Assembly: GCA_963702845.1 (NCBI GenBank)
Contig: OY969763.1
Location: forward strand, 4,768,001-4,832,000
DNA length: 64,000 nucleotides
From: an uncultured Verrucomicrobiae bacterium
Lineage (GTDB): Bacteria; Verrucomicrobiota; Verrucomicrobiia; Limisphaerales; Palsa-1400
Direction: 5' to 3'
Part shown: one piece after another, positions 24,893 to 62,260 of the stretch
Layout: each line of letters begins with the position of its first letter
How positions within the stretch are numbered: position 1 is the stretch's first letter
Made by a program: the position numbers and the translations under genes
Notes under the pieces: model-generated
Databases searched by the model: none
What the model was told of the DNA's origin: nothing
Seen by the model: the letters and a program-made list of their open reading frames with translations, nothing else

Positions 24893-27800
24893 TTATTTTA
24901 ACTTCTGCCCAACTTCTTCCACCCAAACCGTAGGCGGCAACGCATACGGGCGGAACGTCTCGAGTTGCCCCTCTTGCTCGTTATAGAACAACGCGCGGTG
25001 CAAGCCGAGGCTGCCCGCTTTCGGATTATCAATTAGGCTCGCCGAATCACTGGCGCTCATCTGGAACAGCACGCGCATTTCAAATTCCGTCAGGGCTTTG
25101 CGGCTGAGGAACCGGTTCACGTTGTTGTAAGTGTCGCAAGTGACGATCACGTGAATGCCCACGCTCGGACCCTCGTTGATTAATTGATTGAGCAGCGCCG
25201 ACGGTGCCGCAGCTGTTTCCGCGCTGCTCGAAAAGGAAAAATCTTCTTCGTAACGCAATTTGCCGAACCGCTGAACGTCGCGGATGAAGATAAACATCGA
25301 AGGCGCATCGGCGGGATTTGGAGACTCCGCGCGACTACGCATTTCAGCGACAACCTTCGCGAACGTTTCACCAATGTCGTGCGGCGTCAATCGAGTCACC
25401 TCATGCGGAATCGCCGCAACCACGCGATTGACCAGGTCCGCCTGATTCGAATCCGGCGGCGAACTGTCGAGAACCATAAACCGCACCGCATCTTTCGGAA
25501 ACTGCGCCGCCAATGAAATCATTCCAGTCGTGACGATGCTCAGCACCGCCTCTTCGCGTTGGCCCACGATCAATAAATTGTTGCCGCTTTGCCGGCGGAA
25601 CACCGCTTCCGTCGGGCCTTTGATCGAGTTTGGCGCACCCAGCCACATGTGGGCGAGGTCCGGTTTCTTAGTGGGTGGCGATTGCAGCAGTTGAGCAAAC
25701 GCGACATTGTCGCGGACGTCCGCCGGGGCGTCGCCTTCGTAAACAAGCGGCGCAGGAAACCGTTTACCGCTTTGTGCCGCTTGCTTGTCGCACGCGTTCC
25801 AGATAAGTGTCGCGTTCCTCATCCGAAAGCCACACCGCCTGAAACGGACTGTTCGCTTCGAGCGCGCCGGCGCTGTCGTTATAAATACCTTCGCCGGGTC
25901 GCGTCAGCATGCGCGGCGCGGGATTGCTATCATCCATGATCAGGTAGGCATCGGCTTCGTTACATTGCAGCGCGATGCGAATGACCATCTGCCCAAGCGT
26001 CGTGCGCGCGACCGTGTAAGCGCCGCCCAACGTCTGCGAACCAAGGATGACGTGAATACCGAACGCGCGACCCTGCCGGACAATGCGGTCCAACAACACG
26101 GAAGCACTTTGGAAAATCTTATCGTCCTCAGTGAAAAATTCCTGGAATTCGTCGATCAGCAGCAAGGTCCGCGGCATCGGTTGTCCGGTTGCTTTACGAT
26201 AACCCGGAAGGTCCTGAACGTTATGTTCGCGGAACAATTCACCACGCCGCTTCAATTCCGCGTCGAGTCGCTGGAGCACGCTCAAACCAAATTCGCGATC
26301 GCTTTCAATCGCGACAACACGCGCGTGCGGCAATTGGTGCGTGGCGTAACTCTTAAATTCCACACCCTTCTTGAAATCGATCAAATAAAATTCAACCTGC
26401 TCCGGACTGCACCACAAAGCCAGGTTCGTGATCATCACGTGGAACAGCGTCGATTTGCCCGAACCGGTTTTACCCGCGATCAGCGCATGTTGCCGCGTGC
26501 CTTTGCCAATCGCCAGATACTGGAACTTCGTTGCGCCGGTGCGACCAATCGGCACTCGCAATTCGTTGCCCGTGTCGAGCGACCACAGTTCTCCGTCATG
26601 CGGCGCGACGTGCTCGAATGGAACTTCAACGCGGTTCGAATCACGACTGCTTCGCCCGACTTTGTGAATCAATTCAGTCGCCAGTTCCGCAGTCGGCGGC
26701 TCGTCCAATGTAACATTCACACCCGGCAACGATTCTCCTTCGATCAGGTAATTCGTCAGCGTTTCGCGCGGCACAGGTTTGCTGACGATATGCGCCCCGC
26801 TCTTGCGCAAATCCTCCGCCACCGCCGGGTCCAGACGCTGCCGCGTGTCCCAATGAATCAACGTATACACCCCACAACGCGCTCCGCTCGTCGCGATGCT
26901 CATCAGCCGTCGAATCGCGACCTCGCTGAAGTTGTGTGGAAAATCGGCCACGACCAAGAAATGATATTTCTCAGCGATGTTGCCCGCCTGCTCGTTATAT
27001 TCGACGATCGTGCTGTATTCATTGCGCAAATACATCTGGATGACTTTTTCCATGTGCGCGTTGAGTTCGCCCAGCTTTTGATCAATTTGCTCCGCTTGCG
27101 TCCATATCCGGCTGTTGATGAGATGCTCCTCGTGATCGGCGAGGTGCATGAAGCTGGCAAAATTTTGTCCAAGTTCAACAGGATCGATAATAGTGAAACT
27201 CAAACGTCCCGGCGGCGCCGCCGCGAGCAGGCGCAATACGATGTTGTTCAATGAACCAATCATCTGCTCGCGCCCGACGTCGCCTTCAAATAAAATCGAG
27301 CCTTGTTCCGGATACTGTCAGCAATAGCGGGACCTGAAGTTGCGACGGCCCGGGCAACTGCAACTTGCGAGTCCTTCCTGCGGGTCGCGACCAGCTTATC
27401 GACATCGACGTCCATCGAACCAAACCGCGCCACATGCTCGAATTTCGCCGGGGCAGTCCAACCCTCCACCAAATCACGACTCCACGGCGGAAACATTTTC
27501 TGAGACAACGCCGCGCTCTCCTTCAACTCGCGATAAATCGGCTCCAGCCGATTGTTCCATTCCGCGGTAATCGCGCGCATTTCATTTTCAAACGCCGCGT
27601 TATGTTTTGATTCCTGCTGCTGATAACGGTCCGTCGCCTCTTTTTTGCGCGATTCAATTTCAGCGTTGATGCGGCCCAACTCTTCATTCCGTTCGCGGGC
27701 AATCCGTTCCAGCCGCGCCTTATGCATCGCCTCGTGCCGCGCCACAACGCGCTTCCCTTTCTCTTCCACCAGAGGCTCGGAATCTATCTTATATTGCTGC

Positions 27801-28780
27801 GCTCCGTTCAGCGTCTCGCTCCACTCCTGTTGAATCCGTTCCGTTGTCGCCTGAAAATCCGATTCAATCTGCGCCAATGTCCGAACGCGCCGCGTGTCGG
27901 CCTTCTCCAAACAAATTGCGTGAAGATTACGCGCTTTGCCGAGCGCATCAGAAATTTCCTTCGCCAGCGCTCGCCCTTGCCGCGCCCCAATCTGGTGAAA
28001 TGTCCCGGCCAATACAACCAGCGCACCCGCAATTGCCGCCTGCGACCCCAGTCGTCACGGTCTGAACGCTGAGCTGGTGCAAAATCGGAACCATCGCAAA
28101 AAGCCCAGCCGCAATAATCACCCACGCGACAAAATATTTGAAAACTTTCGTGATGAGCAACCGATTGAAACGCGCAATGTTTTCATCTGCCTTCGAACGC
28201 AACTTTTGCAACTCAGTTAGTAAATCGTGTTCGTTCCCCTCGCGCTGCAAACGGCGTCGCCTGCGCCTTCGTCAACATGCGGGAAAATCTCCGGATACCC
28301 GCTGAACGAATCCTTCGCCGCAGCTTCAGACCGAAATAATGCCTCGTTCTCTTCAGCCAAATGCCGTTTGAAATCTTCACACGCGCGCTCTGTCGCGGCG
28401 ATGTCCGTTTCGCGTTTGCGTTGCGACTGCAGCGTCTCGCGTTGCAGTTTATATTTACGCGACCCCTCAATGTGTTCGATGCGTTCGATCGCCTGTTTCT
28501 TCGCGACCTTATGCGCCTTCGCAATAACGCCGCGCCGCTTCTCGTGCCGAGACTGTTCGTTTACGCCCAGCTTCTTGAACGCAACCTCTGCTTCATCCCT
28601 GCGGGCTGCCAACGTCAACGCCAACTCCTCCAAAGCCGCATCGCGATGCTTCTGATCACGCGTCAGCTTCACCTTCAATTCCTGGCCGGCCTTCTCTTCG
28701 CGCGCGGAAAGATCCGCGATGGCGCTGCGAAGTGCCTGCACCAGGTCGCGAACTTTGGAAACTCCGAGCGCGTTACTCAC
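24893..28780 (-). CDS. EccC/EssC-like multi-domain FtsK/SpoIIIE ATPase (about 1300 aa), split by several apparent frameshifts
   Basis: Coiled-coil and TM N-terminus; degenerate ATPase (FTIIDP...GARCGVY); intact ATPase (AGKTGSGKS, LIDFKKGVEF, LLIDEFQ, RQGRAFGIH); degenerate ATPase (NLLIVGQ...EGPSVGIH); pieces 28217..28780, 27948..28250, 27260..28012, 25764..27263, 24893..25822. Confidence 0.85.
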
Positions 28781-28985
28781 AATCTTTTTTTATTTTCGCG
28801 ATTATCTTGTCGAGTTGATCGATCACACCCGACGCGGCATTCACACTCGCGTTCAATTCTTCCATATAAAGCCGCTCGAACTCGATCGCTTTGTTATCGC
28901 GCCAATACTGCTGCGTTTCACGCCAACGATTGAACAGTTCCTGCGTCACCGAGGTCAACCGGGTTTTGTTCGCCGCAAGACTCAT
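28773..28985 (-). CDS. WXG100-like small helical protein
   Basis: 70 aa helix-turn-helix hairpin with central YWRDNKAIEF; overlaps both neighbours. Confidence 0.75.
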   Translation of the reverse strand: MSLAANKTRLTSVTQELFNRWRETQQYWRDNKAIEFERLYMEELNASVNAASGVIDQLDKIIAKIKKDCE

Positions 28986-29548
28986 GAAGCCTCCTTCTCG
29001 TCTGTCGTTCCGGCTTCAGCAGGCGTCTCGGTCGGCTCGGCAACCGTCGTCGCAGCTCGACCAGCACTTGGCACCGTCACATTCGCGTAAGCTTCCAATG
29101 CCCGAATCGATTGCGCCAGATGCGCATGCGCCTTCGGCAATCCACTTGAAAGGAACGATTGCAAACGCTCGAGCTGCTTGGCCAGCGGCGACACTCGACT
29201 CTCAAAATCGCTGATCCATTTCTTCACGTGCGCCAGTTTCATTTCTGCGTCGGCCAGGTCCCGCTGCGCCTTCGTCACCGCCGTCCGCTCCCCCGACGTC
29301 GATTCGCGCAAGCGCGACATCTCCGCGCTGAACACCGCCTGTTTGGCCTCCTCCAACTTCAACGCGCATCGGCGCACCTGCTTTTCCCAATACATCCGCC
29401 GATCGCTCTCCAGCCACACCCGCAGGCGCACGACCTCCGAATTAATTTCATCCAACGTCGGCCGCGCCTTGTTCAAGTACAACACCAACGCCGCGCGAAA
29501 TGCGTCCAGCGCCTCGATTGACGTAATGTTTGCGCCTTGTTGGGCCAT
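28982..29548 (-). CDS. Coiled-coil protein of the WXG100/FtsK locus
   Basis: 188 aa, amphipathic helices, WLESDRRMYW; ATGA overlap with the next gene. Confidence 0.8.
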   Translation of the reverse strand: MAQQGANITSIEALDAFRAALVLYLNKARPTLDEINSEVVRLRVWLESDRRMYWEKQVRRCALKLEEAKQAVFSAEMSRLRESTSGERTAVTKAQRDLADAEMKLAHVKKWISDFESRVSPLAKQLERLQSFLSSGLPKAHAHLAQSIRALEAYANVTVPSAGRAATTVAEPTETPAEAGTTDEKEAS

Positions 29549-46615: not shown

Positions 46616-46643
46616 AAAAAGCCCGCTGTTTCCAGCGGGCTTT
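46616..46643 (-). terminator. Rho-independent terminator of the original tRNA gene
   Basis: Minus strand AAAGCCCGCTG-GAAA-CAGCGGGCTTTTT just 3' of the tRNA fragment. Confidence 0.85.
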
Positions 46644-46647
46644 CAAT

Positions 46648-46697
46648 TGGTTGCGGGGCTGGGATTTGAACCCAGGACCTTCAGGTTATGAGCCTGA
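46648..46697 (-). tRNA. 3' half of initiator-type tRNA-Met(CAT); att-site duplicate, not a complete gene
   Basis: Minus strand TCAGG-CTCATAA-CCTGA AGGTC CTGGG-TTCAAAT-CCCAG CCCCGCAACCA; no D-arm or 5' acceptor strand upstream. Confidence 0.9.
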
Positions 46698-46859: not shown

Positions 46860-48290
46860 ATGCCTCTGGAATTTCGAAAGCAACGTGACGGTACTTTGCG
46901 CGATGTCTGGTTCGGTGCCTTTGAAGTGAACGGCAAACGTTCCGCCGTCAATCTCGGGGTGAAGATCGCGGGCGTTCCCCCACCCTCTCTCTCGCTCAAG
47001 GATCGGGGCGATACGGACTTTGAAGTGTCGCGCGCTAATGCGCTGTCGAAGTTGAATGGCATCGTGGATGAGGCGCGGTCGCAGCGCTCTTCGGAGCGGC
47101 TGGTGGAGAAGCTGTATGAGATTAAGACAGGCGAGCAGATTAAGTCGGTAAAGCTTTCGGACCTGGGCGCTGAGTGGGAGAAGATTCCGCGCAGGCGCAA
47201 ACCGGATGACCGCTACGCTTCGCAATGCAAGTCGCGGCTGGAGAAGTTTGCGACGTTCATTCGTGCGGAGAACTCCAAGGCTGACGAGATCGCGCATGTG
47301 ACGCGGACGACGGCGCGGGCGTTCCTGGATTCGGAAACCAAGCGCGGCGTCACAGCTAAGACGTGGAATGATTCGCTAGTGCTGCTGCGGGCGACGTTCC
47401 AACAGCTTATGCCGGCGGGGAGCATCAATCCGTTTTCCGGTATTCCAACGAAGGAGATTGAAACGGTTTTTCGCAAGCCGTTCACGCCGGAAGAACTCAA
47501 GGCGATCCTAAAGGCGGCCAAGGGCGATAAGTTTATCCGGCCGATTATCATTGCTGGCGTTTGCACGGCGATGCGGCGCGGCGATTGTTGTTTGCTGAAA
47601 GGGTCGGATGTGGATTTGAAAAACCGATTCATTTCGGTGAAAACGGCGAAGACGGGTGAGACGGTGAGCATTCCGATTTTTCCGGCGCTCTACGACGTTC
47701 TGAAGAAAGCGCTAAAGACCATCAAGGATCAGGCTGGATTCGTTTTCCCAAAGCAGGCGGCGATGTATACAGAGAATCCCGACGGCATTACGTGGCGGGT
47801 GCGCAAGGTTCTCGCCCTAGCTGGATTTAAGGACACGGAGAATGAAGATGAAGGGAAGGCAGAGACTGAGGATGAAAAGCCCGGTATTGGCAAGCTGGTG
47901 AAGGTGAACGGGGCTTTGGATGTGGCCAAGACAAACGGAAACGGCGCGGTGCATCGGGGCGAGATTCATGCGGAGCGCAATGGCGGGCTGCGTCGGGCAT
48001 CAGTGCGCGACTTCCATAGCTTCCGTGTGACGTGGGTCACGCTGGCGCTCACTGCGGGTGTGCCGCTGGAGCTAGTGCAAAAGGTGACAGGGCACAAAAC
48101 GACGGACATTGTTTTGAAACATTACTTTCAGCCAGGGCGCGAGGATTTCCGGAAGGCGTTGCAATCGGCGATGCCGAAGCTGCTGACGAATGGGAAGAAG
48201 TCGCCGAAAGAGAAGTTGCGCGAGTTGATCAACAAGTCAAAGGAAGAGGAGCTTAAAAAACAAATGTTGGCGGAGTGGGAGAAGCTGTAA
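46860..48290 (+). CDS. int: Tyrosine recombinase/integrase
   Basis: TAMRRGD (R), KT (K), FHSFR (HxxR), TGH, HY catalytic set. Confidence 0.95.
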   Translation: MPLEFRKQRDGTLRDVWFGAFEVNGKRSAVNLGVKIAGVPPPSLSLKDRGDTDFEVSRANALSKLNGIVDEARSQRSSERLVEKLYEIKTGEQIKSVKLSDLGAEWEKIPRRRKPDDRYASQCKSRLEKFATFIRAENSKADEIAHVTRTTARAFLDSETKRGVTAKTWNDSLVLLRATFQQLMPAGSINPFSGIPTKEIETVFRKPFTPEELKAILKAAKGDKFIRPIIIAGVCTAMRRGDCCLLKGSDVDLKNRFISVKTAKTGETVSIPIFPALYDVLKKALKTIKDQAGFVFPKQAAMYTENPDGITWRVRKVLALAGFKDTENEDEGKAETEDEKPGIGKLVKVNGALDVAKTNGNGAVHRGEIHAERNGGLRRASVRDFHSFRVTWVTLALTAGVPLELVQKVTGHKTTDIVLKHYFQPGREDFRKALQSAMPKLLTNGKKSPKEKLRELINKSKEEELKKQMLAEWEKL

Positions 48291-49516: not shown

Positions 49517-50601
49517 TTAATTTTGCCAGACGAAGCGGCGTTTTAGGTCATTCAGTTGGTTAAATCGTATGACTTTGTCGTGCTGGAGCCGACCAACAAC
49601 GATTCCGGGTGCTATCTGCAGACCCGCGGCAAATTGCGTGACCGCACGCGCAGTAAAATCCCGACGTGTCACAAATGACGTGTACTTCTCTTGAGGAATC
49701 AGGAACTCAGCGGCGAATTTGTTCGCGTCAGCTTCGGTATCGTCTCCATCCTTTAAGCCTTCGACGAACACCGTGTTTTTAACTTCCTGCAGGACATGAC
49801 GGCCTTCGTGAAAAACGGTAAACCAGAAGTGATCGTCGGATTTGTAAAGGAGGCTCACCTGAACGATTGCCTTGTCTTTCGTCAGCCAATAGGTAGCGCC
49901 GCTAACCTTTAATTTTTTTAGCTCCGGTGTGAAAACGAGTGCCACGCCTGCTTCGGCACAGAGCTGCCGCATTTGCGGTTGAAATTCGGCGGCAGACTTC
50001 GTTGTGAGCGAACGAATCTGATCAAGTGCCGATTTGAAGGCATCCGCGTTGAAAGGCTTTGTCTCAATTTTCTGAGCGTCCAACTCGCCCTTGCGCAACC
50101 AAGCCGAAACTATACCGAGCTCGTTGGCGGCGAGTTTCGATTTTCGGAATGAGACAGAAACTTTCTCCCAATAAGTCTGCCAGTTGGCAGGCGAGGAAAC
50201 CCCATAATACGAGAGGGCATTGTGTACAGAACCTGCGAGGGTGTTTGACGCGTCAACCCAACCCTTTTGAACCATTTCCTTATATGGCAAGCGCTTCAAC
50301 CATTCGACTTCTGAAGCGAATTGGGTTTCCTGTGCCTTGCGAGCAAGGAACTCTTGATAGTTCGCGTCAAGGTTTAGCCAGAATGCTGCCGGAGTGCCTA
50401 AGGCGAGTTCAAGCTTTACCGCTGTTTCGGCAGTAATTGGGGCAACGCCTTGGATGATTTGGTTCACCGTTTTCCGGCTTAAGCCGACGCGGTCAGCTAG
50501 ATCCATCTGGGTCATGCCAAGGCACTCGAGCGTTTCCGCCAAGGTGTCCCCTGGGGGGTCCGGTCTTGCGGGTCGTATCGAATTGGTGCGTTCTTAGCCA
50601 T
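49517..50601 (-). CDS. higA: HigA-family HTH antitoxin fused to ImmA/IrrE metallopeptidase; apparent frameshift in G-run 50553-50558
   Basis: MTQMDLADRVGLSRKTVNQII...AFWLNL, FHEGRH (HExxH), EADANKFA; one extra C restores MAKNAPIRYDPQDRTPPGDTL from ATG 50601. Confidence 0.88.
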
Positions 50602-50932
50602 GATAGTCAGTTATTTCGTTGATCATTACCGCTGTAACTTTCGACCAATCGAGTCCACCGTCGTCTTTACGTGGTATGGGGTCGTTGGCGGGCTCGAACA
50701 GCAAACGGTAGGGATGATCTAGGTCTACAGCCAACTGGCCTTTCAAATTGCCACTTAGCTCGTGACAACGTGGGCCAGGTATTTTCCGAATCATCTCCAA
50801 GTTCGTTAGCGCCACAAACTCGTCTAGTCTGCGGCGGAGCAGCTTGCCTCGCCTGTCTCCCCATTCCCGCTTCGCATCGTCCAGAGTTTCACAATGCTTA
50901 GCGAATTTCGATTTGCGAAAATATATATCCAC
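50594..50932 (-). CDS. higB: HigB/RelE-like toxin
   Basis: RCHELSGNLKGQLAVDLDHPYRLLF...EITDYH; overlaps higA start. Confidence 0.88.
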   Translation of the reverse strand: MDIYFRKSKFAKHCETLDDAKREWGDRRGKLLRRRLDEFVALTNLEMIRKIPGPRCHELSGNLKGQLAVDLDHPYRLLFEPANDPIPRKDDGGLDWSKVTAVMINEITDYHG

Positions 50933-51104: not shown

Positions 51105-51767
51105 TTATTCTGCCGTCGGTGGGTTTGGCTTTTGGTTGAGTGACCTTTGGACGGCTTCCTTAGCGCGTTTCATCTGCGCCTTATATTCGGGCGATTGCAA
51201 AATAGCGTTAAATTTTGCAAGCTTCTCCGCCGCTTCGGGGTCAACCGGAGGTACAATTCTTGAAAATTCGGACGACACCGTTCGAAGTTTTTCCTCATTC
51301 GGGAGGCCGTCGAATCTATAGAATTTGGTGTAGTCGTTTGTATAAACGAGATAGTGGAGCTTTATGGCTGCAGTTGGGATTGGGCCAACGTGGCAGACTT
51401 CCACGTATGGAATAACGTTTCCTTTGGTCCCGATTTTGTTGTCTGGATAGGGAATCAACTTCCCCGGCAGCTTATCGCGATCGAGTCCAAGGATTACTGT
51501 CATTGGGTTCGCACGACCGAGGAACTGGGTCCATTTTACTGACTCTCCGATGATAAGGTTTTCAGGTTCTGATTGAAAATCGAAGAGAGAGACAGCACGC
51601 AGTTCTTGGCAAGCGTAGCATCCGCCCAATTTGCTCCTTCCGTTATTGGGTTTGATAAAACCGTCGGTGCGGATTTGTCGGTATTCTTCCGGGCTAGTGC
51701 AATGCCACAGGTTGGAGCACCGTAGCTGTCGAAACAATGGGTGAGTTGATTCTAGCTCGCACCTCAT
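51105..51767 (-). CDS. Putative ADP-ribosyltransferase-fold protein
   Basis: LWHCTS...QIRTDGFIKP...AVSLFD...EVCHVGPIPTAAI; ATGA-coupled to the upstream gene. Confidence 0.6.
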   Translation of the reverse strand: MRCELESTHPLFRQLRCSNLWHCTSPEEYRQIRTDGFIKPNNGRSKLGGCYACQELRAVSLFDFQSEPENLIIGESVKWTQFLGRANPMTVILGLDRDKLPGKLIPYPDNKIGTKGNVIPYVEVCHVGPIPTAAIKLHYLVYTNDYTKFYRFDGLPNEEKLRTVSSEFSRIVPPVDPEAAEKLAKFNAILQSPEYKAQMKRAKEAVQRSLNQKPNPPTAE

Positions 51768-52455
51768 TTTCGTAAAGCGTCGAGGGGGACCCAGTCGCCG
51801 GGGGCGCGTTGGTATTGCCAAAATTGCCAACCGTTGCACGTTCGACGCTTGTATGCGTGGGCTCCTGCAAGCGATGGGGACGTGAAGTGCTTTCCGTCAT
51901 ACCAATCAGCCCAGTCTTGCGCACGTAAGCTCTGTGCGTTTTGCCCTTGTGCCGCGCGCGGATTGTCATGGCACCACTTATGTAGTCGGCAAGGATGGGT
52001 TTTCGCCCGTCGGTTTCGACTGCTTTGACCGGACGCGGCGCACGTTTTGACGTCGTGCCCATTAGTTCCTGCATTTCCAATTCCCATGAAGATTTGACGT
52101 CGCCTTTGAATTTGCGATGGAGGTCTTCAGATTTGGCGAACTTGCCCTTCTGCAAGTTGCCTTTGGTTGTAATGATGCGCAGCAGCAATGCTTCAAGTTC
52201 TCGGAGGTGACTGTCGCCGATGGTGAAGTAAACGCTAAAGCGGTCCCACGATTGGCCGTGTCGATCTTTGAGATGGTGGCCTAACCGTGAACGCAGATTT
52301 GAAGCCAATCCGACGTAATAGAGTTTGTCGCGGCGGTAGAGGGCGTAAACACCGTGGCGTTTGCGGACGTAATCGCGGATGATGTGTTGGTATTTTTCCA
52401 ACCCATTGCGCGAGATGTTTTCAAGATGCTGGCAAACGAGAGGCGTCCGTTTCAT
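51764..52455 (-). CDS. GIY-YIG nuclease fused to RAMA (DUF4357-like) domain; apparent frameshift near 51905
   Basis: GVYALY...LYYVGLASNLRSRL..H...ELEALL; C-terminus YDGKHFTSPSLAG...NGWQFW in the adjacent frame. Confidence 0.8.
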
Positions 52456-52845
52456 AGTTGTCCGTGGTCCGAAGCGAGGTTGCGAGAACAGCCTTAAAAA
52501 CACCAGAGGAATTGCGCGCGAACGCCAGATGCTATGACACGAAAGAAGTTGGTTGCGTTCCCGATTATGTGGAACTACAGCGCCACGTCCACTCCAATCG
52601 TTCTCGCTGAAAACAGTCGCCGAAACTGCGAAATGGTGTGCAAGGAGCACAATCGGGAGAAAGGAGGAAATAGAGGCTTGGAAGTTGCAGCAAAAAAGCG
52701 GCGGTGAATAACTTTTGACTCGGAAAGTGGTTTTGTTTACACCGTTGTCTCAAGCCAACCGAAAAGCCCCTGTGGGAGCGTTTTCTCACGCCAGCGGGTG
52801 ACGGGTGGATGCGTATCAACCATAACGCAACAGAAGGAAAAAAGC

Positions 52846-53632
52846 TTGGGACATGAGCAAATAGGCAGACTTCGGAAATCCGCGAGCTGGAACAAGGTCG
52901 TTTCGCTTATTACGAACGGGGCGGACGTGGCGAAGGTGGCGGAGGCTACGAGTCAAGCGCTGGAAAAGTCGCTGCTCTATGTGCAGAATGATGCCGGGTT
53001 CAAAGAAGCGGTCCATTTAATGACGCAGCTTGCCGTTGCTGGAACCAAGAAAGATCCCGCTGAACACCTCGCATCGGTCGGTATTGTGCTTTCACCTAAA
53101 ACTTCAGTGGCCGATGTGGTGGCGGCGGTGACGGAGGCTTTGGATCAGAACGTAGATGCTACGGGAAAGAGGTCTGATTTCAGCGAATGCGCGCATCGGG
53201 CGCTGATTGGCACTCTTAGCCAGTATCTGAGCAACAATCAAACGACGCTGTTCGAATCCAGCCACGAAGATGTGAGTTCCGCCCTCAATTCTCTACGAAA
53301 AGAAAAAGCGTTCGGAGAGTTTTCGAAATCCTTTTTTGGGAAATTGACGAACGAATGCATGGATTACTTCCTTTCGAAAACGCTGGCGACGCATGTCGGA
53401 GAAGGGCAGCAATTTGCCACGATGAACCAGATGGCGCAGTTCGAGGCGGGCTTATCTAAACATTGTAGCGAGGTGGCGGTGATCGTGGAGAAGGTACAGC
53501 AAGGAATGGTTTTCAAAGAACCTGCGTGAAGGGAAAGGTGATATTACGAAAGATGTCGCTGAAGGGTTTGGCTGGTATGGCGTGAAAAAGATTCAAGATG
53601 CATTGAAGGAAAGGCCGAGCGATGGAAAATGA
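52846..53632 (+). CDS. QatB-like all-helical partner of a QueC-family enzyme; apparent frameshift near 53493
   Basis: SD AAGGA + TTG start giving MGHEQIGRLRKSASW...; removing one G continues it as YSKEWFSK... to TGA 53632, overlapping the next start. Confidence 0.6.
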
Positions 53633-55670
53633 GCATATCATTGTGTGCGGCGGCCAACAGCCACCGGCTGGGATTGGCAAAAAGTTTCTGGCGCTCAATC
53701 TCTGGGGTGGGAAGGGCGTAGCGAATATCAAATTTCACATAGAAGATATTCATTCGCGGCTTCTTCAGAATGTGCCGGAGCGGTTCGTGGACCTGCTGGA
53801 GATCGCGGCTTATCTCTATTGTTTTGACCAGGGATTTGCGCGCGTGAGGATGGATGTGGAGAGTTTTGGGTCGGCGTGGCGGCGAAGGTTCAAAGTATAT
53901 GTGCCGGTGCGCGACCCGGACTTTTGGAATGATGCGGAGGTGAAGAGAACGCTGACGGATACGTTGAATTTTCTTTCCGATGAATTTTTCGATTTTCGAT
54001 TTTCCAAAGCGTATAAGCCGCCGGAGTTACAGGAATATCTCGATTTCAAGGAGAGCGCGGGCGCTGAGCAAACAGCCGAACAAGTAATGATGTACTCGGG
54101 CGGGCTGGATTCATTGGCAGGTGCAATCGACGAAATCATAACGCAAAAACGGCAAGTCGTTTTGGTCAGTCACAGGTCGACGCCGAAATTGCTCGGAGTG
54201 CATCGGCGCTTGGAAGCGATGATTGTGGAAAAGGCGGGACAGAAAAGGCCGGTGCAGATGAACGTCCGCGTCAGCAAGAAGATCGTTTTAGATGAAGAGG
54301 ATCATACGCAACGGTCCCGGTCGTTCTTATTTGGGTCCTTGGGAGCGACGGTTGCGACTGTCCTGGGTTTGAAAAACCTCCGGTTTTATGAGAATGGCGT
54401 CTTGAGCATGAATTTGCCGATGACTGCGCAGCTCGTGGGTGCCCGCGCGACACGCACGACGCATCCGCGGGTGATTCGAGGGTTTTCCAGACTGTTCTCG
54501 TTGGTGGCGGGTGAAACATTCACGGTGGAAAATCCGTTTATCTGGAATACGAAGGGAGAAGTAATACGGAAAATTGTCGACGCAGGCTGTGACGCGATGA
54601 TTGAAGCGTCCACGAGCTGCCCACACACACGGCAAGCAAGCAAAGAGCAGACGCATTGCGGTGCGTGTTCGCAGTGCATTGATCGGCGCTTTGGAGTTAT
54701 AGCAGCGGAAGCGGAAGAATTTGATCCTCCTTCGATTTATCGAATGGATGTTTTTACGGAGTCGCGCTCTAAGGAAGAGGATAAACTGATGGTTGCGGCG
54801 TATTTGGAACGTGCTAATCAGGTTGCGAAATTGGGAAACGCAAATGACTTCATGTCGAAGTACACGGAACTGGGACGGGTGATCCGGTGCATGGATGGCG
54901 CGCCTGATAGCGTGGCTGGCCGCATCTTCGAGTTGTATAAGCGGCATGCGACAGAGGTCAACGAGACAGTCGATAAGATGATGGGAAAGTATCGGAGGGA
55001 AATACGGGAGCGCACGTTGCCTGGAGATTGTCTCTTGCGATTGGTTTATGAGTCTGGATCGGTGACTTCGTTGCCGGTACAAACAGCAGAGCCGATGGAC
55101 AAAACTATTGTTGGCGCAGAGACGAAGACTGCGGCGTTTGTGTTTCGAAAGGCTGGCAGTGTGTGGGATGTGGTTTTCGACGGTGGCAGTTTATTCCACA
55201 TCGATGACGGTTTCGGGGCGAAATATTTGGACTATTTACTGCACCGTCCGAACGAAGTGATTAACGCATTTGACTTGGAAAAGGCTATCCGACCGGCAAA
55301 AGGAAATGCGCGGGCCAAAGATTCGGCACAAACGGCTGTGGACCAACAAACCAAACGAGAGGCTAAGGAAGAACTCCCTCATTTGGAAGCGGAGTTGGAG
55401 ACTGCCGAAGGCGAGGGAGATACTGCGAAGGTAGAACGGTTGAGAGGCGAAATAGCTAAGGTGAAGTGCGTCATCGGCAATGAGAATTTATTGAACGGGG
55501 ACGCTGGCGAGCGCGCGCGCGACAACGTGAGAAAAGCTATCAATAAGGTTGTCCAAAAAATGCGTAAGGGCTCAAAAGAGGAGCAGGCGTTTGGTCAGCA
55601 TATTGGGCAGTTCGTTTCCCTCGGATACGAGGTCTGTTACAATCAACCGAACGAAAATAGTTGGGCGTAA
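53622..55670 (+). CDS. QueC/QatC-like PP-loop enzyme with C-terminal putative DNA-binding extension
   Basis: DLLEIAAYLY..D, YSGGLDS, QRSRSFLF, ENG, TRTTHP, HCGACSQCIDRR; extra about 190 aa (GAKYLDYLLHRPNEVI...ERARDNVRKAI). Confidence 0.85.
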   Translation: MENEHIIVCGGQQPPAGIGKKFLALNLWGGKGVANIKFHIEDIHSRLLQNVPERFVDLLEIAAYLYCFDQGFARVRMDVESFGSAWRRRFKVYVPVRDPDFWNDAEVKRTLTDTLNFLSDEFFDFRFSKAYKPPELQEYLDFKESAGAEQTAEQVMMYSGGLDSLAGAIDEIITQKRQVVLVSHRSTPKLLGVHRRLEAMIVEKAGQKRPVQMNVRVSKKIVLDEEDHTQRSRSFLFGSLGATVATVLGLKNLRFYENGVLSMNLPMTAQLVGARATRTTHPRVIRGFSRLFSLVAGETFTVENPFIWNTKGEVIRKIVDAGCDAMIEASTSCPHTRQASKEQTHCGACSQCIDRRFGVIAAEAEEFDPPSIYRMDVFTESRSKEEDKLMVAAYLERANQVAKLGNANDFMSKYTELGRVIRCMDGAPDSVAGRIFELYKRHATEVNETVDKMMGKYRREIRERTLPGDCLLRLVYESGSVTSLPVQTAEPMDKTIVGAETKTAAFVFRKAGSVWDVVFDGGSLFHIDDGFGAKYLDYLLHRPNEVINAFDLEKAIRPAKGNARAKDSAQTAVDQQTKREAKEELPHLEAELETAEGEGDTAKVERLRGEIAKVKCVIGNENLLNGDAGERARDNVRKAINKVVQKMRKGSKEEQAFGQHIGQFVSLGYEVCYNQPNENSWA

Positions 55671-55742
55671 ATCGGTAGTTTTTTGATTTGGGAACGCAAA
55701 GTTCCCAATTGGGAATCGTTAATTCCCGCCATTTGGGCGTAA
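55661..55742. promoter_or_regulatory. Tandem palindromic operator-like region
   Basis: GGGAAC-GCAAA-GTTCCC (55690-55706) and GGGAAT-CGTTA-ATTCCC (55711-55727), flanked by TTGGGCGTAA at 55661 and 55733. Confidence 0.6.
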
Positions 55743-55862
55743 GCCTGAATGGCGGTTTTTTTTGGACTCGTTGGTCGAGCCCTTCGTTGACTCCGCGATT
55801 CAGGTAATGGCCTGAGTCGCGTTTTTTGTGCGCGTCTCTGGCGACGAAGAAGACGAAGAACT

Positions 55863-56066
55863 ATGAGAACGCTAAGAAACAAAGCGAAAGTGATGCGCGG
55901 CAAACGGGGGCAGCTCGGGTGGACCCAGTTCGAACTGGCGCGACGAGCTGGTTGTTCGGAATCGCAAATCGCCAAGATCGAGACGGGCCGGATCGCTCCT
56001 GAACCCTGGCTTCGAGATGCCATCGCGCATGCATTAAACATTCAACCGTTCGAGGTGGGCTTGTGA
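55863..56066 (+). CDS. XRE/Cro-type HTH regulator
   Basis: WTQFELARRAGCSESQIAKIETG. Confidence 0.88.
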   Translation: MRTLRNKAKVMRGKRGQLGWTQFELARRAGCSESQIAKIETGRIAPEPWLRDAIAHALNIQPFEVGL

Positions 56067-56359
56067 TTACTGCGAACCCTAATGAACGGTTGATTCGGTT
56101 TCTCCAGGCTACGCCGGAGCAGCAAGCGATGGTGGATCGGATTCTCGACGGCCACGCACCCGTGGCACCTCCGCCAATCTCCGGGCCGTTGCTGTTGCCG
56201 ATGGGCAAGGCTTGTGAGTTGCTTGGGGTTTCGCGACCTACTCTCTGGCGCATGCTCAATGCAAAAAAGCTCACACGGGTTGAGGTGTTACCGAAGACGT
56301 ATCGGGTGAGGCGATCGGAAATTCTGGAGTTGGCGAATGGAAAGGACGGCGGCCAATGA
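56063..56359 (+). CDS. Excisionase-like HTH protein
   Basis: LLPMGKACELLGVSRPTLWRML...YRVRRSEI; GTGA overlap. Confidence 0.8.
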   Translation: MITANPNERLIRFLQATPEQQAMVDRILDGHAPVAPPPISGPLLLPMGKACELLGVSRPTLWRMLNAKKLTRVEVLPKTYRVRRSEILELANGKDGGQ

Positions 56360-56769
56360 ACCAGCAACGTAAACAGAAGGTAACGGAGGGATCTAAGAAG
56401 ATTGCGGATTGCGGATTGCAGAGTGCGGATTCCAAACAAAAGGTCGCGAAGGAAACGAAGGCAAACCTAACGTTTGACGGCAAGCGGGGCTTGCATCCAC
56501 CTCGATCTCAGCGACCCGGCGGGCCGGTGAAAACGAATGCAACTGCGCAAAGCGATTGGGATGGGGCGCTGAAATCTTGGCAGCTTGCGGAAAAAATTCA
56601 GGTGAGTGAGCGGATGATTCGCAAGCTGGTGGCACAGAAGAAAATTCCGGTGATGCGGTTGGGGCGGTTGCTTCGGTTTGATTACGACGCAGTGCAAAAG
56701 GCGCTGACTGTCGCGGAAAATAAGAATGGGGTTGATGGGACTATTGCGACGAATGGAGGCGGCCAGTGA
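56356..56769 (+). CDS. Second excisionase-like HTH protein with repeat-derived N-terminus
   Basis: LAEKIQVSERMIRKL..KIPVMRLGRLLRFD; ATGA overlap. Confidence 0.75.
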   Translation: MNQQRKQKVTEGSKKIADCGLQSADSKQKVAKETKANLTFDGKRGLHPPRSQRPGGPVKTNATAQSDWDGALKSWQLAEKIQVSERMIRKLVAQKKIPVMRLGRLLRFDYDAVQKALTVAENKNGVDGTIATNGGGQ

Positions 56770-57791
56770 TCAGCGTTCTGGATCGGGCTCTGCGTTATGT
56801 CGCGAAGTGTGAGCCCGCAATTTCCGGGCAAGGTGGGCATGATCGCACCTTTCATGTGGCGGCTGTCGCCGTTCATGGGTTCGCCCTGGATGATGCCGAT
56901 GCGCTGGCGGTTTTGCGTGAGTATAATCAACGGTGTGTGCCGCCATGGTCGGAAACGGAGTTGGTGCATAAGGTTCGGTCGACGGCGACGGCGCAACATG
57001 CGTTAGCACGCGGCCACCTTTTAAAGGAACACGACAGGGGAACCGATTTCAAATCTCAGATTTCAGATTTGAAAGTGTCCAGACCTGCTTCGGCAAATTT
57101 GGTCAGTCCGCGAGCGGCGGCGGAGCGGTTTCTAAACGGGTTTCGCTGTCATGAATCGGATTTGACTGCGGAAAGCCCGGTGGCGTTGGATGGAGAGCCG
57201 CGTTTCGACGGCGTTCTGGCACTGGCGAATTTGTATAAACCGGATGAGCGAATCAATTTTGTAACGGAGTTTGAGGAAACGACGGTTAAGGGCGAAATCA
57301 AGGCGCGGCCGGTCGGCAAAGGTCTGACGCTGACGAGGGATGAAGCGATGCGGCGTTTTGCGGAGGTCGGAACTGACAGCAGCCGCGCGGGTGGATGGCT
57401 GCGGATGAATCCGGTGGACGGGTACGGCATCGCGGATGCGAATGTGGCGGCGTTTCGGTTCGCCCTGCTGGAAAGCGATGCGCTTCCGATGGATTTGCAG
57501 GTGTCGCTCATTGCGCGATTGCCGTTACCGGTCTCTTTGGTGGTGAGCAGCGGCGGTCGCTCGGTGCATGCGTGGGTGAGAATTGATGCCGGCGATATTG
57601 CGGAGTATCGGGCGACGGTTTCGAAGATGCTCAAGATTCTGGCGCGGCTTGGGGTGGATGAGAAAAATAAAAATCCTTCAAGGCTTTCGCGTTTGCCGGG
57701 AGCGAAACGGGAGATCGGCGGAGTCGGTGACGGGTGGCAAAAGATTCTGTATCTAAATCCGAATCCAGCGGAGAGGAGGATTTGCCCATGA
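56766..57791 (+). CDS. AEP-type (RepB'-like) DNA primase with N-terminal PriCT-like helical domain
   Basis: ALLESD, SSGGRSVHAWV, NPSRLSRLPG; N-terminal PAISGQGGH..TF...CVPPWSETEL. Confidence 0.78.
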   Translation: MISVLDRALRYVAKCEPAISGQGGHDRTFHVAAVAVHGFALDDADALAVLREYNQRCVPPWSETELVHKVRSTATAQHALARGHLLKEHDRGTDFKSQISDLKVSRPASANLVSPRAAAERFLNGFRCHESDLTAESPVALDGEPRFDGVLALANLYKPDERINFVTEFEETTVKGEIKARPVGKGLTLTRDEAMRRFAEVGTDSSRAGGWLRMNPVDGYGIADANVAAFRFALLESDALPMDLQVSLIARLPLPVSLVVSSGGRSVHAWVRIDAGDIAEYRATVSKMLKILARLGVDEKNKNPSRLSRLPGAKREIGGVGDGWQKILYLNPNPAERRICP

Positions 57792-58930
57792 CAAGCCTCG
57801 ATGTGTTGGAAAAGGAGGTTATGGAGGCGTCAACGCCAGCGAATGAGCAACCGCCGGTCGCGCGGAAGTTGAGCGAGCTGGTGCTGCCCGACATCAATGA
57901 CCCGGATGAGCTTTTGAAACATCGGTTCCTCGGGCGTGGCGGTGGGATGTTGATGGTTGGGCCGACGGGAATCGGGAAAAGTTCGCTGGGGATGCAGTTG
58001 ATGGTGCTTTGGGCGCTCGGGCGAGAGGCGTTCGGGATAAAACCATCCAAGCCATTGAAGTCGCTGTTGGTGCAAGCCGAGAACGATGACGGGGACCTGG
58101 CAGAAATGAGAGACGGGGTGATTCGCGGTCTGGGCTTGAATGCCGATGAAACGAAACGTGCTTTAGACAATGTGATTGTGGTGAGGGAAGATTCGCGGAC
58201 AAGCAGCGGTTTCGCGACGGGCGTGCTGCGGCCGTTATTGGAGACGCATCGGCCCGATTTGCTTTGGATTGATCCGGCGCTGGCTTATCTCGGCGGGGAA
58301 GCGAGTTCGCAAAAGGATGTAGGCGGGTTTTTGCGGAATTTGCTGAACCCGCTTTTGCGCGAGTTCAATTGCGGATGTGTGGTGGTGCATCACACGAATA
58401 AGCCTTCGTCGGGACGTGAAAAGTCGGAGTGGCAGGGAAGCGATTTTGCGTATCTGGGCAGCGGGTCCATTGAATGGGCGGGTTGGGCGCGTGGAGTGAT
58501 TGCGTTGCGGAGCGTTGGGTCGCATTCGGTCTTCGAACTGCGGGCGGCGAAACGCGGAGCACGGCTGCGATGGAAGGAATCCGATGGTGTAACGGCGAGT
58601 TTTGCCAAATTGATTGCGCACAGCCGCGAGCCTGGCGTGATTTGCTGGCGTGAAGCGCAAGCGGACGAGATTCCGGCCGACGCGAAGCGAAAGAATGTTT
58701 TCACCAAGGAGGATTTATTGCCGCACGTGCCTACTGATAAAGCGATTTTGAAAGAGGCGCTGAGGAGCAAAGCGAACGGCGCGGGGATCGCGATAAACAA
58801 AATCAATGGGCTGATCGCGGAGTTGGTGGATGACGGCAGGCTTTTTATTTGGCGCATCAAACGCACGGGAACGAACCCGCAATTGCAGATTGCACGGTTT
58901 CGCCAGCCAGTGGAGGAATTGATAAGATGA
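57788..58930 (+). CDS. RepA/AAA_25 (SF4-like) replicative helicase
   Basis: GPTGIGKS, QAEND, LWIDP, VVHHTNK, GSGS; ATGA overlap. Confidence 0.88.
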   Translation: MTSLDVLEKEVMEASTPANEQPPVARKLSELVLPDINDPDELLKHRFLGRGGGMLMVGPTGIGKSSLGMQLMVLWALGREAFGIKPSKPLKSLLVQAENDDGDLAEMRDGVIRGLGLNADETKRALDNVIVVREDSRTSSGFATGVLRPLLETHRPDLLWIDPALAYLGGEASSQKDVGGFLRNLLNPLLREFNCGCVVVHHTNKPSSGREKSEWQGSDFAYLGSGSIEWAGWARGVIALRSVGSHSVFELRAAKRGARLRWKESDGVTASFAKLIAHSREPGVICWREAQADEIPADAKRKNVFTKEDLLPHVPTDKAILKEALRSKANGAGIAINKINGLIAELVDDGRLFIWRIKRTGTNPQLQIARFRQPVEELIR

Positions 58931-60030: not shown

Positions 60031-60182
60031 AATACTGAGAAAGAACCAAAAGACAGGCAGAAGGGAAGGAGCACCCTCTTAGGAGTCGGGTGGCCTTCCT
60101 TCTTCTGCCGTTGGACTGCGGAGGTGTTAGCACACGGCCACCACTTGCACGCAGCGATCAACACGCCAGAAATAAAGCATTT

Positions 60183-60812
60183 ATGAGCCGACCATTTGAA
60201 CAACTGCCGACGCCGAGTGTTAGCACACGGACACCTTCGCTTTCTTTCGAGCAGCAACCGAAAGAAAGTGCTAAGGCGTTTGCGGCGTTTGGATTGTATC
60301 TGAGTATGGGGCCGGAGCGGTCGCTGGAATTGGTGGGGCGAAAGTTAGGCAAGAGTAAGGGGCAAATGGAAAAGTGGTCGCGGCGTTTTGAATGGACTTC
60401 GAGGGTGCAGGCGCATGGGGCGCACCTGGCTATTGTGGAGCGCGAAGCGATCGAGGCGACGGCGCGAAGCAAGGCGGCGGAGTGGGAAGGGCGTGAGCAG
60501 AAGTTGCGAGAAACGGAATGGGCGATGCATGAGCGGGCGATTGCTGCCGCGCAACGGGGTCTCGATGCCTACATGGCGCGTGAAAAGGTTTATGCGAATC
60601 TTTCGGACATCGCGCGGATGCTGGAGGTCGCGAGCAAGCTTGGGCGGCTGGCGACGGGGCTTGGGACGAACGGCGAGCGCATGAACGGTGACGAGTTGCC
60701 GACGGTGCGCGTCGAGGTCACGGTCGCACTGGAGAAGATTTATGGCGAGCCGTTGCCGGGTGAAATTATCGACGTCGAGGCGGTGCGAACACTGCCGGAG
60801 GGAACGCAATGA
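60183..60812 (+). CDS. terS: Putative terminase small subunit
   Basis: ESAKAFAAF..Y..MGPERSL...KWSRRFEWTSR HTH + helical body; ATGA overlap with terL. Confidence 0.7.
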   Translation: MSRPFEQLPTPSVSTRTPSLSFEQQPKESAKAFAAFGLYLSMGPERSLELVGRKLGKSKGQMEKWSRRFEWTSRVQAHGAHLAIVEREAIEATARSKAAEWEGREQKLRETEWAMHERAIAAAQRGLDAYMAREKVYANLSDIARMLEVASKLGRLATGLGTNGERMNGDELPTVRVEVTVALEKIYGEPLPGEIIDVEAVRTLPEGTQ

Positions 60813-62260
60813 CGCCGTGGGAAAGGTATTTTCTGATCGGGCGGCGCGCGGGTTGTCCGAAGGATCAGATGCAACGGTTTGAGCGGGCGGACGTCGTCTT
60901 GCAGGAGCGTCAGCTTGCGGCCAGCGCGGCGGCGCGACTTTGCGACGGTGCCGATGGGCCGACGGCGATCGGCTACGGCGGCGCACGTGGTGGTGGCAAG
61001 TCGCATTGGTTGCTTGGACAGATGGGCGTCGATGATTGTCAGCGTGTGCCAGGGTTGAAATGTTTGCTGCTGCGCAAGGTCGGCAAGGCGAACCTTGAGC
61101 ACTTCGAGGATCTGCGGCGAAAGTTGTTCACGAAACTCGGTCACGAGTTCTCGGCGTTTCGGGGAATCCTGACGTTCAACAATGGATCGCGCATCATCGC
61201 TGGGCATTTCCAGAACGAGAAGGACATCGACGCGTATCTCGGGCTTGAATACGACGTTATCGGCATAGAAGAGGCGACGACGTTGACGGCGCGCAAATAC
61301 CAGGACATCACGACGTGTTGTCGGACGAGCAAACCGAATTGGCGGCCGCGTATCTATTCGACGACGAATCCGGGCGGCGTCGGTCACGGCTGGTATCGAA
61401 CGAGGTTCGTTCTCCCGTTCTTGAACAAGGCGGAAACGGAAACGAGGTTTGTGGCGGCGCGTGTGACTGACAACCGGTGGAACAACCCGGAGTATATCCG
61501 GGTGCTGCAGGGTCTGAGCGGTTGGCAGCGTCGCGCGTGGCTGGATGGCGACTGGGACATCGCGGCGGGGCAGTTCTTCACGACGTTGCGGCGCGATGTG
61601 CATGTGGTTGAGGATTTCGATGACAGGCGCGCGCGGGAATGGTTCTGTGCGTTAGACTATGGATTTGCGCATTACACTGTGGTGTTGCTCGGCTGCACGG
61701 ATTGTGATGGGAACGTTTTCGTCGTGGATGAACACGCGGAACGGCTCTGGTTGCCGCAACGTCATGCGGCGGCAATCAAGGCGATGGTGCAACGGCACAA
61801 AACGGTTGCGAATCGCGCCGGAAGTTCCGGTTCCCATTTGCAAATTGCGGATTTGAAACGGTTCGTTGCTGGTGCGGATGTGTTCTCGCGTCAGAGCGAT
61901 GGCACGACGATTGCCGCGCAGTATGCGAAGCACGGAATCACGCTGCGGTGCGCGAACACAGACCGCATCAACGGCTGGGCTGAGATTCTGCATCGTCTCG
62001 GCGACACGAACGTCGTGCTCGCACCGATCGTCGGTCTCGCAGTGGGAGGAACGAAGCCTACGCTTTTCATTCACAAACGATGCGGGCGGCTGATTGAGAC
62101 GCTGCCAGCGCTGCAACATGATCCCCATCGCCCTGAGGATGTGTTGAAGGTCGACGCCGACGATGATGGCGTCGGCGGCGATGATGCGGCGGATGCGTTG
62201 CGTTACCTGGTGGCGACGAAAGCACGAAGTGTCGTCGCGAGGAAGTTGAGCGGGTTTTGA
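60809..62260 (+). CDS. terL: Terminase large subunit
   Basis: YGGARGGGKS, IGIEEAT, TTNPGGVGH, ALDYG, DDAADALRY. Confidence 0.92.
   Translation: MTPWERYFLIGRRAGCPKDQMQRFERADVVLQERQLAASAAARLCDGADGPTAIGYGGARGGGKSHWLLGQMGVDDCQRVPGLKCLLLRKVGKANLEHFEDLRRKLFTKLGHEFSAFRGILTFNNGSRIIAGHFQNEKDIDAYLGLEYDVIGIEEATTLTARKYQDITTCCRTSKPNWRPRIYSTTNPGGVGHGWYRTRFVLPFLNKAETETRFVAARVTDNRWNNPEYIRVLQGLSGWQRRAWLDGDWDIAAGQFFTTLRRDVHVVEDFDDRRAREWFCALDYGFAHYTVVLLGCTDCDGNVFVVDEHAERLWLPQRHAAAIKAMVQRHKTVANRAGSSGSHLQIADLKRFVAGADVFSRQSDGTTIAAQYAKHGITLRCANTDRINGWAEILHRLGDTNVVLAPIVGLAVGGTKPTLFIHKRCGRLIETLPALQHDPHRPEDVLKVDADDDGVGGDDAADALRYLVATKARSVVARKLSGF

Follow-up and report, generated by a model that had tools for sequence, protein, structure and literature searches.

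A QatC-type enzyme fused to a predicted winged helix

The window analysed here, a 64,000-nucleotide stretch from an uncultured Verrucomicrobiae bacterium (GCA_963702845.1, contig OY969763.1, positions 4,768,001 to 4,832,000), contains an integrated phage-like element with two overlapping plus-strand genes that resemble qatB and qatC of the anti-phage system qatABCD. The first, which runs from a TTG start at 52846 to 53632, encodes a helical partner protein and is frameshifted at 53493/53494 as assembled. The second is an open reading frame (ORF) at 53622-55670 for a 682-residue protein, in which a QatC-type enzyme part of about residues 1-480 (53622..55061) is followed by a C-terminal tail (residues 505-682; 55134..55670) with a predicted OmpR/PhoB-type winged-helix fold. 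Downstream lie two 17-bp palindromes, the putative operator O1 (GGGAAC-N5-GTTCCC, 55690..55706) and, 21 bp after it, O2 (GGGAAT-N5-ATTCCC, 55711..55727), and then a plus-strand early operon (55863..58930). A prediction made from the letters alone had proposed a stand-alone QatB/QatC-like module in which the enzyme is wired to DNA binding.

The placement of the enzyme part near QatC is supported by profile, sequence and fold searches. The PADLOC QatC profile matches the 682-residue protein at 1.9e-55, phmmer matches it to the solved QatC 9vlk at 3.5e-31, and Foldseek ranks 9y01_B (E 6.4e-18, TM(target) 0.72) above QueC and Cap9; the NCBIfam QatC model NF041925 gives 211.7 bits, which is under its curated cut-off of 280. 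From the N terminus, the enzyme part consists of an extension, the PP-loop SGGxDS, RxRxxxF, ExG, TxT-HP, a zinc site and C-terminal helices; these extensions, motifs and zinc site are shared with the QatB-QatC core of qatABCD, as described in the available portions of the structural reports (PDB 9y01/9y02, 9vlk, 9zee; PMC13279940, PMC13639016, PMC13376578). The full PP-loop and zinc-cysteine cluster that the original prediction ascribed to a QueC-family gene are indeed present, as SGGLDS (S159-S164) and C333/C346/C349/C352. So are the residues specific to QatC (D69/R74/W86/R88, R231/R233, E257/G259, T277/T279, H281/P282 and P305/T310), which show little or no variation in alignments of 36 and of 42 members. 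The accessible part of one report gives the QatC motif set as D(x)4R..WxR, RxRxxxF, ExG, HP and P(x)4TK (PMC13329287), and the D-to-W spacing in the window enzyme exceeds that of the published D(x)4R..WxR motif.

That the protein is a metabolic QueC which makes preQ0, or that the locus is decayed or artefactual, would suit both the database name of these proteins, "7-cyano-7-deazaguanine synthase", and the frameshift in the window's partner gene. We regard this explanation as very improbable. The canonical QueC motifs YxQxHxxE, VPxRN and YPDC are lacking from the protein and the QatC motifs are in place; the canonical size (about 220 residues) and queDE neighbours were likewise not found, the host genome carries a separate canonical queC elsewhere, and intact gene pairs are common. 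QatC is moreover unable to complement queC, according to the part of the report at hand (PMC13329287). Judged by its sequence motifs, the 682-residue protein belongs to the QatC type, has its catalytic motifs intact and is not a preQ0 synthase. Its fusion to the tail is widespread and no sequencing artefact: 2974 of 8000 candidates matched the fusion, full-length homologues measure 675-710 residues, the best are 42-52% identical over the whole length, and the nearest named full-length ones come from Verrucomicrobiota. In the phage and plasmid collections, QatC matches were only of canonical length.

The prediction had also suggested that the enzyme senses phage deazaguanine metabolism. This idea is unsupported rather than excluded, because the substrate pocket of the window enzyme has a Thr/Thr pair (T277/T279) where proteins reading 7-carboxy-7-deazaguanine (CDG) have Tyr/Asp, and because the first QatC substrate is left unsettled in what is available of the literature (PMC13376578). 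The same replacement of the CDG-reading pair by two threonines is described for QatC, in the portion of that report that was accessible (PMC13279940).

The tail is predicted to be a DNA-binding winged helix. In a fold search with the predicted structure, its residues 505-675 match many OmpR/PhoB DNA-binding domains, and the model has the beta sheet, three helices and C-terminal wing of that fold, with a coiled-coil hairpin (about 575-619) preceding the putative recognition helix (about 628-648); no simple residue-to-base code is evident in that helix. At the sequence level, the window protein has no match to Pfam Trans_reg_C and Pfam holds no model for the tail, a comparison with the Protein Data Bank (PDB) returned coiled-coil noise only, and the ESM Atlas returned unnamed clusters only. 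The family is very large, with 16,805 clusters at 50% identity, and has one record in the plasmid collection and none in the phage collection. Among 100 scanned of 149 listed proteins, the domains found ahead of the tail were REC (2), STAND AAA_16 (9), TPR, CBS, cyclase, reverse transcriptase and QueC, and we therefore read the tail as a modular output domain. The C-terminal motifs quoted in the original prediction are present, and the STAND proteins bear out its likening of the region to the tails of ATPase-type regulators. In one protein of the family, P0159 (1683 residues), a winged-helix tail of the same type stands in one chain with a CHC2 zinc finger and a reverse transcriptase.

The partner gene and its frameshift

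The prediction gave the partner 261 residues, a length reached only by ignoring one base at 53493/53494; as assembled, the frame from the TTG at 52846 stops at 53529 after 227 residues, and the conserved C-terminal 45 or so residues lie in the +1 frame, ending with a TGA at 53630-53632 that overlaps the enzyme start. The one-base insertion is most likely an assembly error, because the partner is intact at 240-290 residues in 147/150 homologues with a visible start, because a public-run contig (151 nt, depth 2) that is identical over 53494-53636 (143 bases) and reaches only 8 bases past the site is without the extra base, and because other conserved genes of the same assembly are broken. The latter, found among 16 motif matches examined, are RpoC (687-residue open frame), CarB (505) and two EF-G-family GTPases (252 and 261), broken by comparison with what we take to be the normal lengths of these proteins. 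A true mutation of this strain is the less probable alternative. A run of consecutive minus-strand ORFs at 25764-29548 that resemble pieces of a larger FtsK/EssC-type locus also fits assembly indel errors. Among the matches listed for public sequencing runs there was one DNA run (share 0.07) and no RNA run.

The enzyme's assignment to QatC is firmer than the partner's to QatB, and the "QatB/QatC-like" label of the original prediction stands for the former more fully than for the latter. The partner begins Met-Gly-His, as do 144 of the 147 intact homologues, and the family has a conserved proline and tryptophan near the N terminus. In QatB, which begins MGTS, Gly2, Pro16 and Trp18 are essential, going by the available parts of two reports (PMC13279940, PMC13639016). 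A profile-profile alignment of the partner with QatB by hhalign covered 81 columns (P 0.0009, probability 22%; reversed control P 0.43). No match to the partner was found in PADLOC or among PDB sequences, and QatB was in no listed row of two fold searches with the partner model; its first helix starts at residue 13, so the 30-90-residue disordered N-terminal tail of QatB is absent. At most, these comparisons make the partner a remote relative of QatB. It accompanies the enzyme with regularity: a tblastn partner match was obtained at 155/176 loci, the remainder being mostly truncated contigs, canonical qat loci or non-QueC proteins.

The two-gene layout thus recalls QatB-QatC in having a helical partner gene adjacent upstream, with an invariant Gly2 and a conserved N-terminal proline and tryptophan, and differs from it in the MGH start, the missing N-terminal tail, the remote similarity of the partner, and the enzyme's winged-helix output domain and sub-threshold NCBIfam score. 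Type IV of the cyclic oligonucleotide-based antiphage signalling systems (CBASS) likewise pairs a QueC-fold enzyme with a Gly2-bearing protein (Cap9-CdnD; PDB 9nto); unlike it, the window locus has no CD-NTase or Cap10/TGT, and its enzyme has large extensions and Thr/Thr for the CDG-reading Tyr/Asp pair.

A pair of palindromic sites tracks the tail

In the 6-Mb genome, the pattern of O1 and O2 is matched nowhere but at these two sites. To place them in context, we surveyed 94 de-duplicated loci out of 158 with a usable anchor ORF, and counted a site pair when its score was 18 or more. The gene pair usually lies between a recombinase with restriction-modification (RM)-type cargo and an early operon. 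In the window, the excision/replication operon that the prediction called adjacent does lie directly downstream of the enzyme gene. The qatBCD order occurred at 4/94 loci, all canonical. A site pair directly follows 45/68 tailed genes, compared with 22/822 control gene ends and 0/22 untailed anchors; when overlapping windows are removed the controls fall to 14/789, of which 11 are displaced true sites. Among 26 tailed loci without an adjacent pair, 14, all of one clade, have it at a distance of 3.8-4.3 kb, on the other strand, where the early operon begins, which brings the total to 60/72 tail-bearing loci (14 of them from that one clade). The site pair hence stays with the early operon when the enzyme-tail genes move away.

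Several comparisons indicate that the sequence of the sites follows the tail and not the enzyme, although the trees are quick ones and kinship inflates the site-tail counts. Within one host phylum the site sequence shifts with tail lineage, yet it is constant across phyla. In the tree of tails, the window's own falls in with four non-QatC proteins whose half-sites are GGGA/GAGA (SH-aLRT 90), whereas the enzyme core is nearest to members with CGGA/GCTA sites; similarly, sister enzymes with swapped tails show different sites (L019/L031 versus L039/L033). Tail proteins without QueC, whose contexts were taken from the host's phylum only, have pairs ahead of cro/xis genes, with 10/11 scoring at least 18 under a relaxed filter (a count that leaves out L196, which is truncated, and L198). 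Members with other tails are followed by direct repeats in 9/18 cases against 30/737 controls, and 3/18 of these tails (L148, L151 and L152) match Trans_reg_C above its cut-off. Tail, site pair and early operon behave as a fixed control unit of these elements, in which the QatBC-like gene pair is one exchangeable input. Among the non-QueC tail proteins, L172/L188, L191 and L192 have a same-strand gene of 270-280 or more residues upstream, which parallels the two-gene QatBC-like layout; the upstream gene of L172 has no Pfam match.

Two terminator-like structures occupy the plus strand of the early leader: T1 (55726..55763), a hairpin with a T run that overlaps the end of O2, and a second hairpin, T2 (55794..55827). 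GCC and AAG motifs stand at a fixed distance after O2, the AAG lying about 12 bases after it at a conserved position within the T1 loop. No sigma-70 consensus promoter was found on the plus strand around the sites. Two readings of these features were dropped: that the motif conserved behind O2 is a -35 element, for which there is no -10 at 17 bp, and that the sites originate from repetitive extragenic palindromic (REP) elements, which the single pair per element and the clade-dependent sequence do not suit.

The element and its host

The element is about 29 kb long and is bounded, by blastn and ARAGORN in its own genome, by a 55-bp repeat of the 3' end of tRNA-Met, with attL at 46643..46697 and attR at 4843654-4843708 of the host genome (G000; about window 75654-75708). 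A plus-strand tyrosine integrase (46860..48290; PF00589 7.6e-15, phrog_1) is followed by a minus-strand HigBA-like cargo (49517..50932), the QatBC-like pair and the early operon, which comprises a Cro-like HTH_3 gene (55863-56066), two xis-like HTH_17 genes (56063-56359 and 56356-56769), a primase (56766-57791) and an AAA_25 helicase (57734-58930), all on the plus strand. Genes for the small and large terminase subunits (60090..62260, plus strand) come next, and past the window, as far as attR, those for portal, scaffold, major head protein and head-tail adaptor. Among the element's genes, none for tail or lysis could be recognised, and QatA, TatD, CD-NTase, TGT and QueDE had no match in the element ORFs scanned, which were most but not all of them. 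Nor did a KAP protein appear among the scanned neighbours, no dedicated KAP family search having been made. To that extent the original prediction of a stand-alone Qat-like two-gene module was right, and the pair differs from qatABCD in being without qatA (KAP NTPase) and qatD (TatD) within the scans made, and in standing at a fixed place ahead of the early operon of a prophage, together with a cognate site pair.

The window's element could equally be a capsid-forming satellite or a deleted prophage. Its integrase, xis, primase, terminase, portal and capsid genes, together with the lack of recognised tail genes and of CI, resemble phage-inducible chromosomal islands (PICI) of the AlpA type and of the type that forms capsids, in so far as the sources at hand describe them; unlike these, its regulator is unrelated to AlpA and many of its relatives are tailed prophages. 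In a set of 26 related proviral records, of which only 6 are at least 90% complete, 11 have a tape measure match, and the reading of the whole family as tailless satellites was dropped on that account. Exactly two site copies were found in 20 of these 26 records, and neither TatD nor an S24 peptidase (CI-type repressor) in any of them.

Within the cargo, the HTH_3/peptidase-M78 protein (49517-50542) and the HigB-like toxin (50594-50932) give a strong PADLOC PD-Lambda-2_B match (2.3e-36), and two ORFs divergent from the gene pair, an unassigned 244-residue ORF (51105-51839) and a GIY-YIG protein (51694-52650), give weak PDC-S14 matches and are possible defence cargo. About 3.7 kb past attR, by a tRNA-Arg at 4847332, inspection alone points to a second small integrated element (G000:4847400-4852400) with integrase-like and primase/helicase-like ORFs and HTH genes.

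A possible switch for the early operon

We tentatively favour the interpretation that the locus encodes a distant QatB/QatC-type pair whose fused winged helix likely binds the two palindromes and likely activates the early operon, with the reaction between enzyme and partner as the likely input. All steps from partner modification through transcription are inferred, as follows. The partner's Gly2 would sit in the enzyme's active site and, by analogy with the proposal for QatB, might be acylated in an ATP-dependent manner. A trigger would then alter the state of the enzyme-partner complex; superinfection is a plausible one because canonical QatBC is an anti-phage unit. Tail dimers would thereupon occupy O1 and O2, which lie two helical turns apart. 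Because O2 stands at the -35 position, ahead of a degenerate -10 inside T1, new transcripts would be expected to escape T1 and allow cro, xis and primase to be expressed. Regulators of the OmpR and STAND (MalT/AfsR-like) types, which are mostly activators, have a comparable build, with an input domain, a C-terminal winged helix and a two-turn site spacing, and window-type tails occur behind REC and STAND domains; the window protein is unlike them in having a PP-loop ligase with a partner as its input, a long coiled-coil insert, and palindromes rather than direct repeats.

The same wiring could have the opposite sign, with the fusion acting as a prophage repressor at O1/O2 that is released when the QatC-partner reaction fires. 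The fusion does occupy the slot ahead of the Cro-like gene, CI/S24 was found in 0/26 records, and palindromes paired two turns apart suit cooperative repression. We nevertheless prefer activation over repression, because no consensus promoter was found, regulator and operon stand in tandem, and the spacing from O2 to the AAG is like that of a pho box, an element that replaces the -35 and stands before the -10. For a repressor one would look to a consensus promoter overlapping the sites and, as with CI, a divergent regulator gene; a separate LexA-type small repressor gene ahead of the pair at 8/94 loci and the family priors towards activators also argue against this version, which we consider unlikely. 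The prediction that the fusion possibly switches on the adjacent operon is thus upheld as to the link, by way of a cognate site pair that it did not include, and activation is favoured only.

Alternatively, the chain may combine two jobs: the gene pair would be a minimal QatBC cargo against phages, and the tail an ordinary regulator of the element that became joined to the enzyme and is not under its control. QatB and QatC, which carry no DNA-binding domain, suffice for defence against some phages, according to the accessible part of one report (PMC13279940); the slot lies beside other defence cargo (RM, HigBA), and the tail occurs without QatC and retains its sites. Set against this, DNA-binding tails of several unrelated kinds, each with its own sites, have become joined to one enzyme clade, for which chance fusion is a poor explanation, and the partner has neither QatB's long N-terminal tail nor a clear QatB fold match. 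This explanation, too, strikes us as rather unlikely, yet it is a serious rival.

A number of observations weigh against an enzyme-controlled activator. Its polarity, which we favour, is drawn from geometry and family priors only, and the conserved AAG may partly reflect hairpin pairing. By analogy with QatBC, which can defend alone, the action of the enzyme may not depend on the tail. As assembled, the partner gene of this locus is broken, 12/72 tailed loci have no pair passing the score (some being degenerate or truncated), and the concordance between site and tail is partly kinship. The converse search was also mixed: when viral loci were sought by the main-class site pair, 80 were found, of which 6 have a tailed gene adjacent and 26 the cassette 3-5 kb away, but 48 have no tailed gene or cassette within 5 kb, many of these being short or in the same recombinase/AAA_24 context. 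In thirty of these records, which make up 22 sequence groups and include 4 that are at least 90% complete, the tail is not matched at any position. A further 11 loci with the window's own pattern, mostly arrays of at least 3 copies, have no adjacent tailed gene, and the one tail match among them is marginal (83 residues) and 2 kb off. Sites without tails might serve as decoys, be read in trans, or represent iteron-like repeats.

Such loci raise the question of whether the palindromes are iteron-like replication or recombination sites, or are read by another protein, with the tail targeting elsewhere. Arrays or pairs with a 21-22-bp period in viral records without the tail would fit this idea, as phage iterons share such geometry. 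It is nonetheless quite improbable, given that a genome has a single pair, located where the early operon begins, that the sequence varies with tail lineage inside one host phylum but stays constant between phyla, and that a pair follows none of the 22 untailed enzymes.

Two sets of viral sites deserve mention in their own right. GGGAA-type 17-bp palindromes form arrays with a 21-22-bp period in unrelated viral contigs (L279-L289), where they are possibly origins. Near-identical copies of the pair also lie in frame within phage genes (L205, L214, L240, L241/L244/L260/L274, L262 and L271); the phages are unrelated and partly Mu-like, and their records lack the tail domain. These copies are possible decoys or insertion footprints, and one such gene has four phage homologues that each match only its N-terminal half.

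Implications for QatBC function and prophage induction

In the parts of the three 2026 qatABCD structure reports that were available, the trigger of QatC, the group attached to QatB and the mode of stopping phage are left open (PMC13279940, PMC13639016, PMC13376578); one of them reports an NDG-modified QatB peptide, but neither a shift in intact mass nor activity in vitro (PMC13639016). Our literature search found no published description of a QatC-winged-helix fusion, within the article portions that it covered; variants could be listed in supplements, which lay outside it. A natural fusion in which QatC is joined to a transcription factor whose target site can be identified would let a simple reporter follow QatC activity; it would also speak for QatBC being a sensor and not an effector.

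More broadly, it is possible, if doubtful, that a CI-less prophage family uses a class of undescribed one-component regulators, in which a coiled-coil winged helix and a paired operator are combined with exchangeable sensors. In the present case a QatBC-like tagging enzyme would detect incoming phage and trigger excision and replication, QatBC would in general be a sensor, and the in-frame operator copies in unrelated phages would be decoys. The switch, if confirmed, would be categorically new. The findings point to a very large family of DNA-binding domains (16,805 clusters) that has no Pfam model, and to a logic of prophage induction, in a widespread provirus group, that needs neither CI nor the SOS response.

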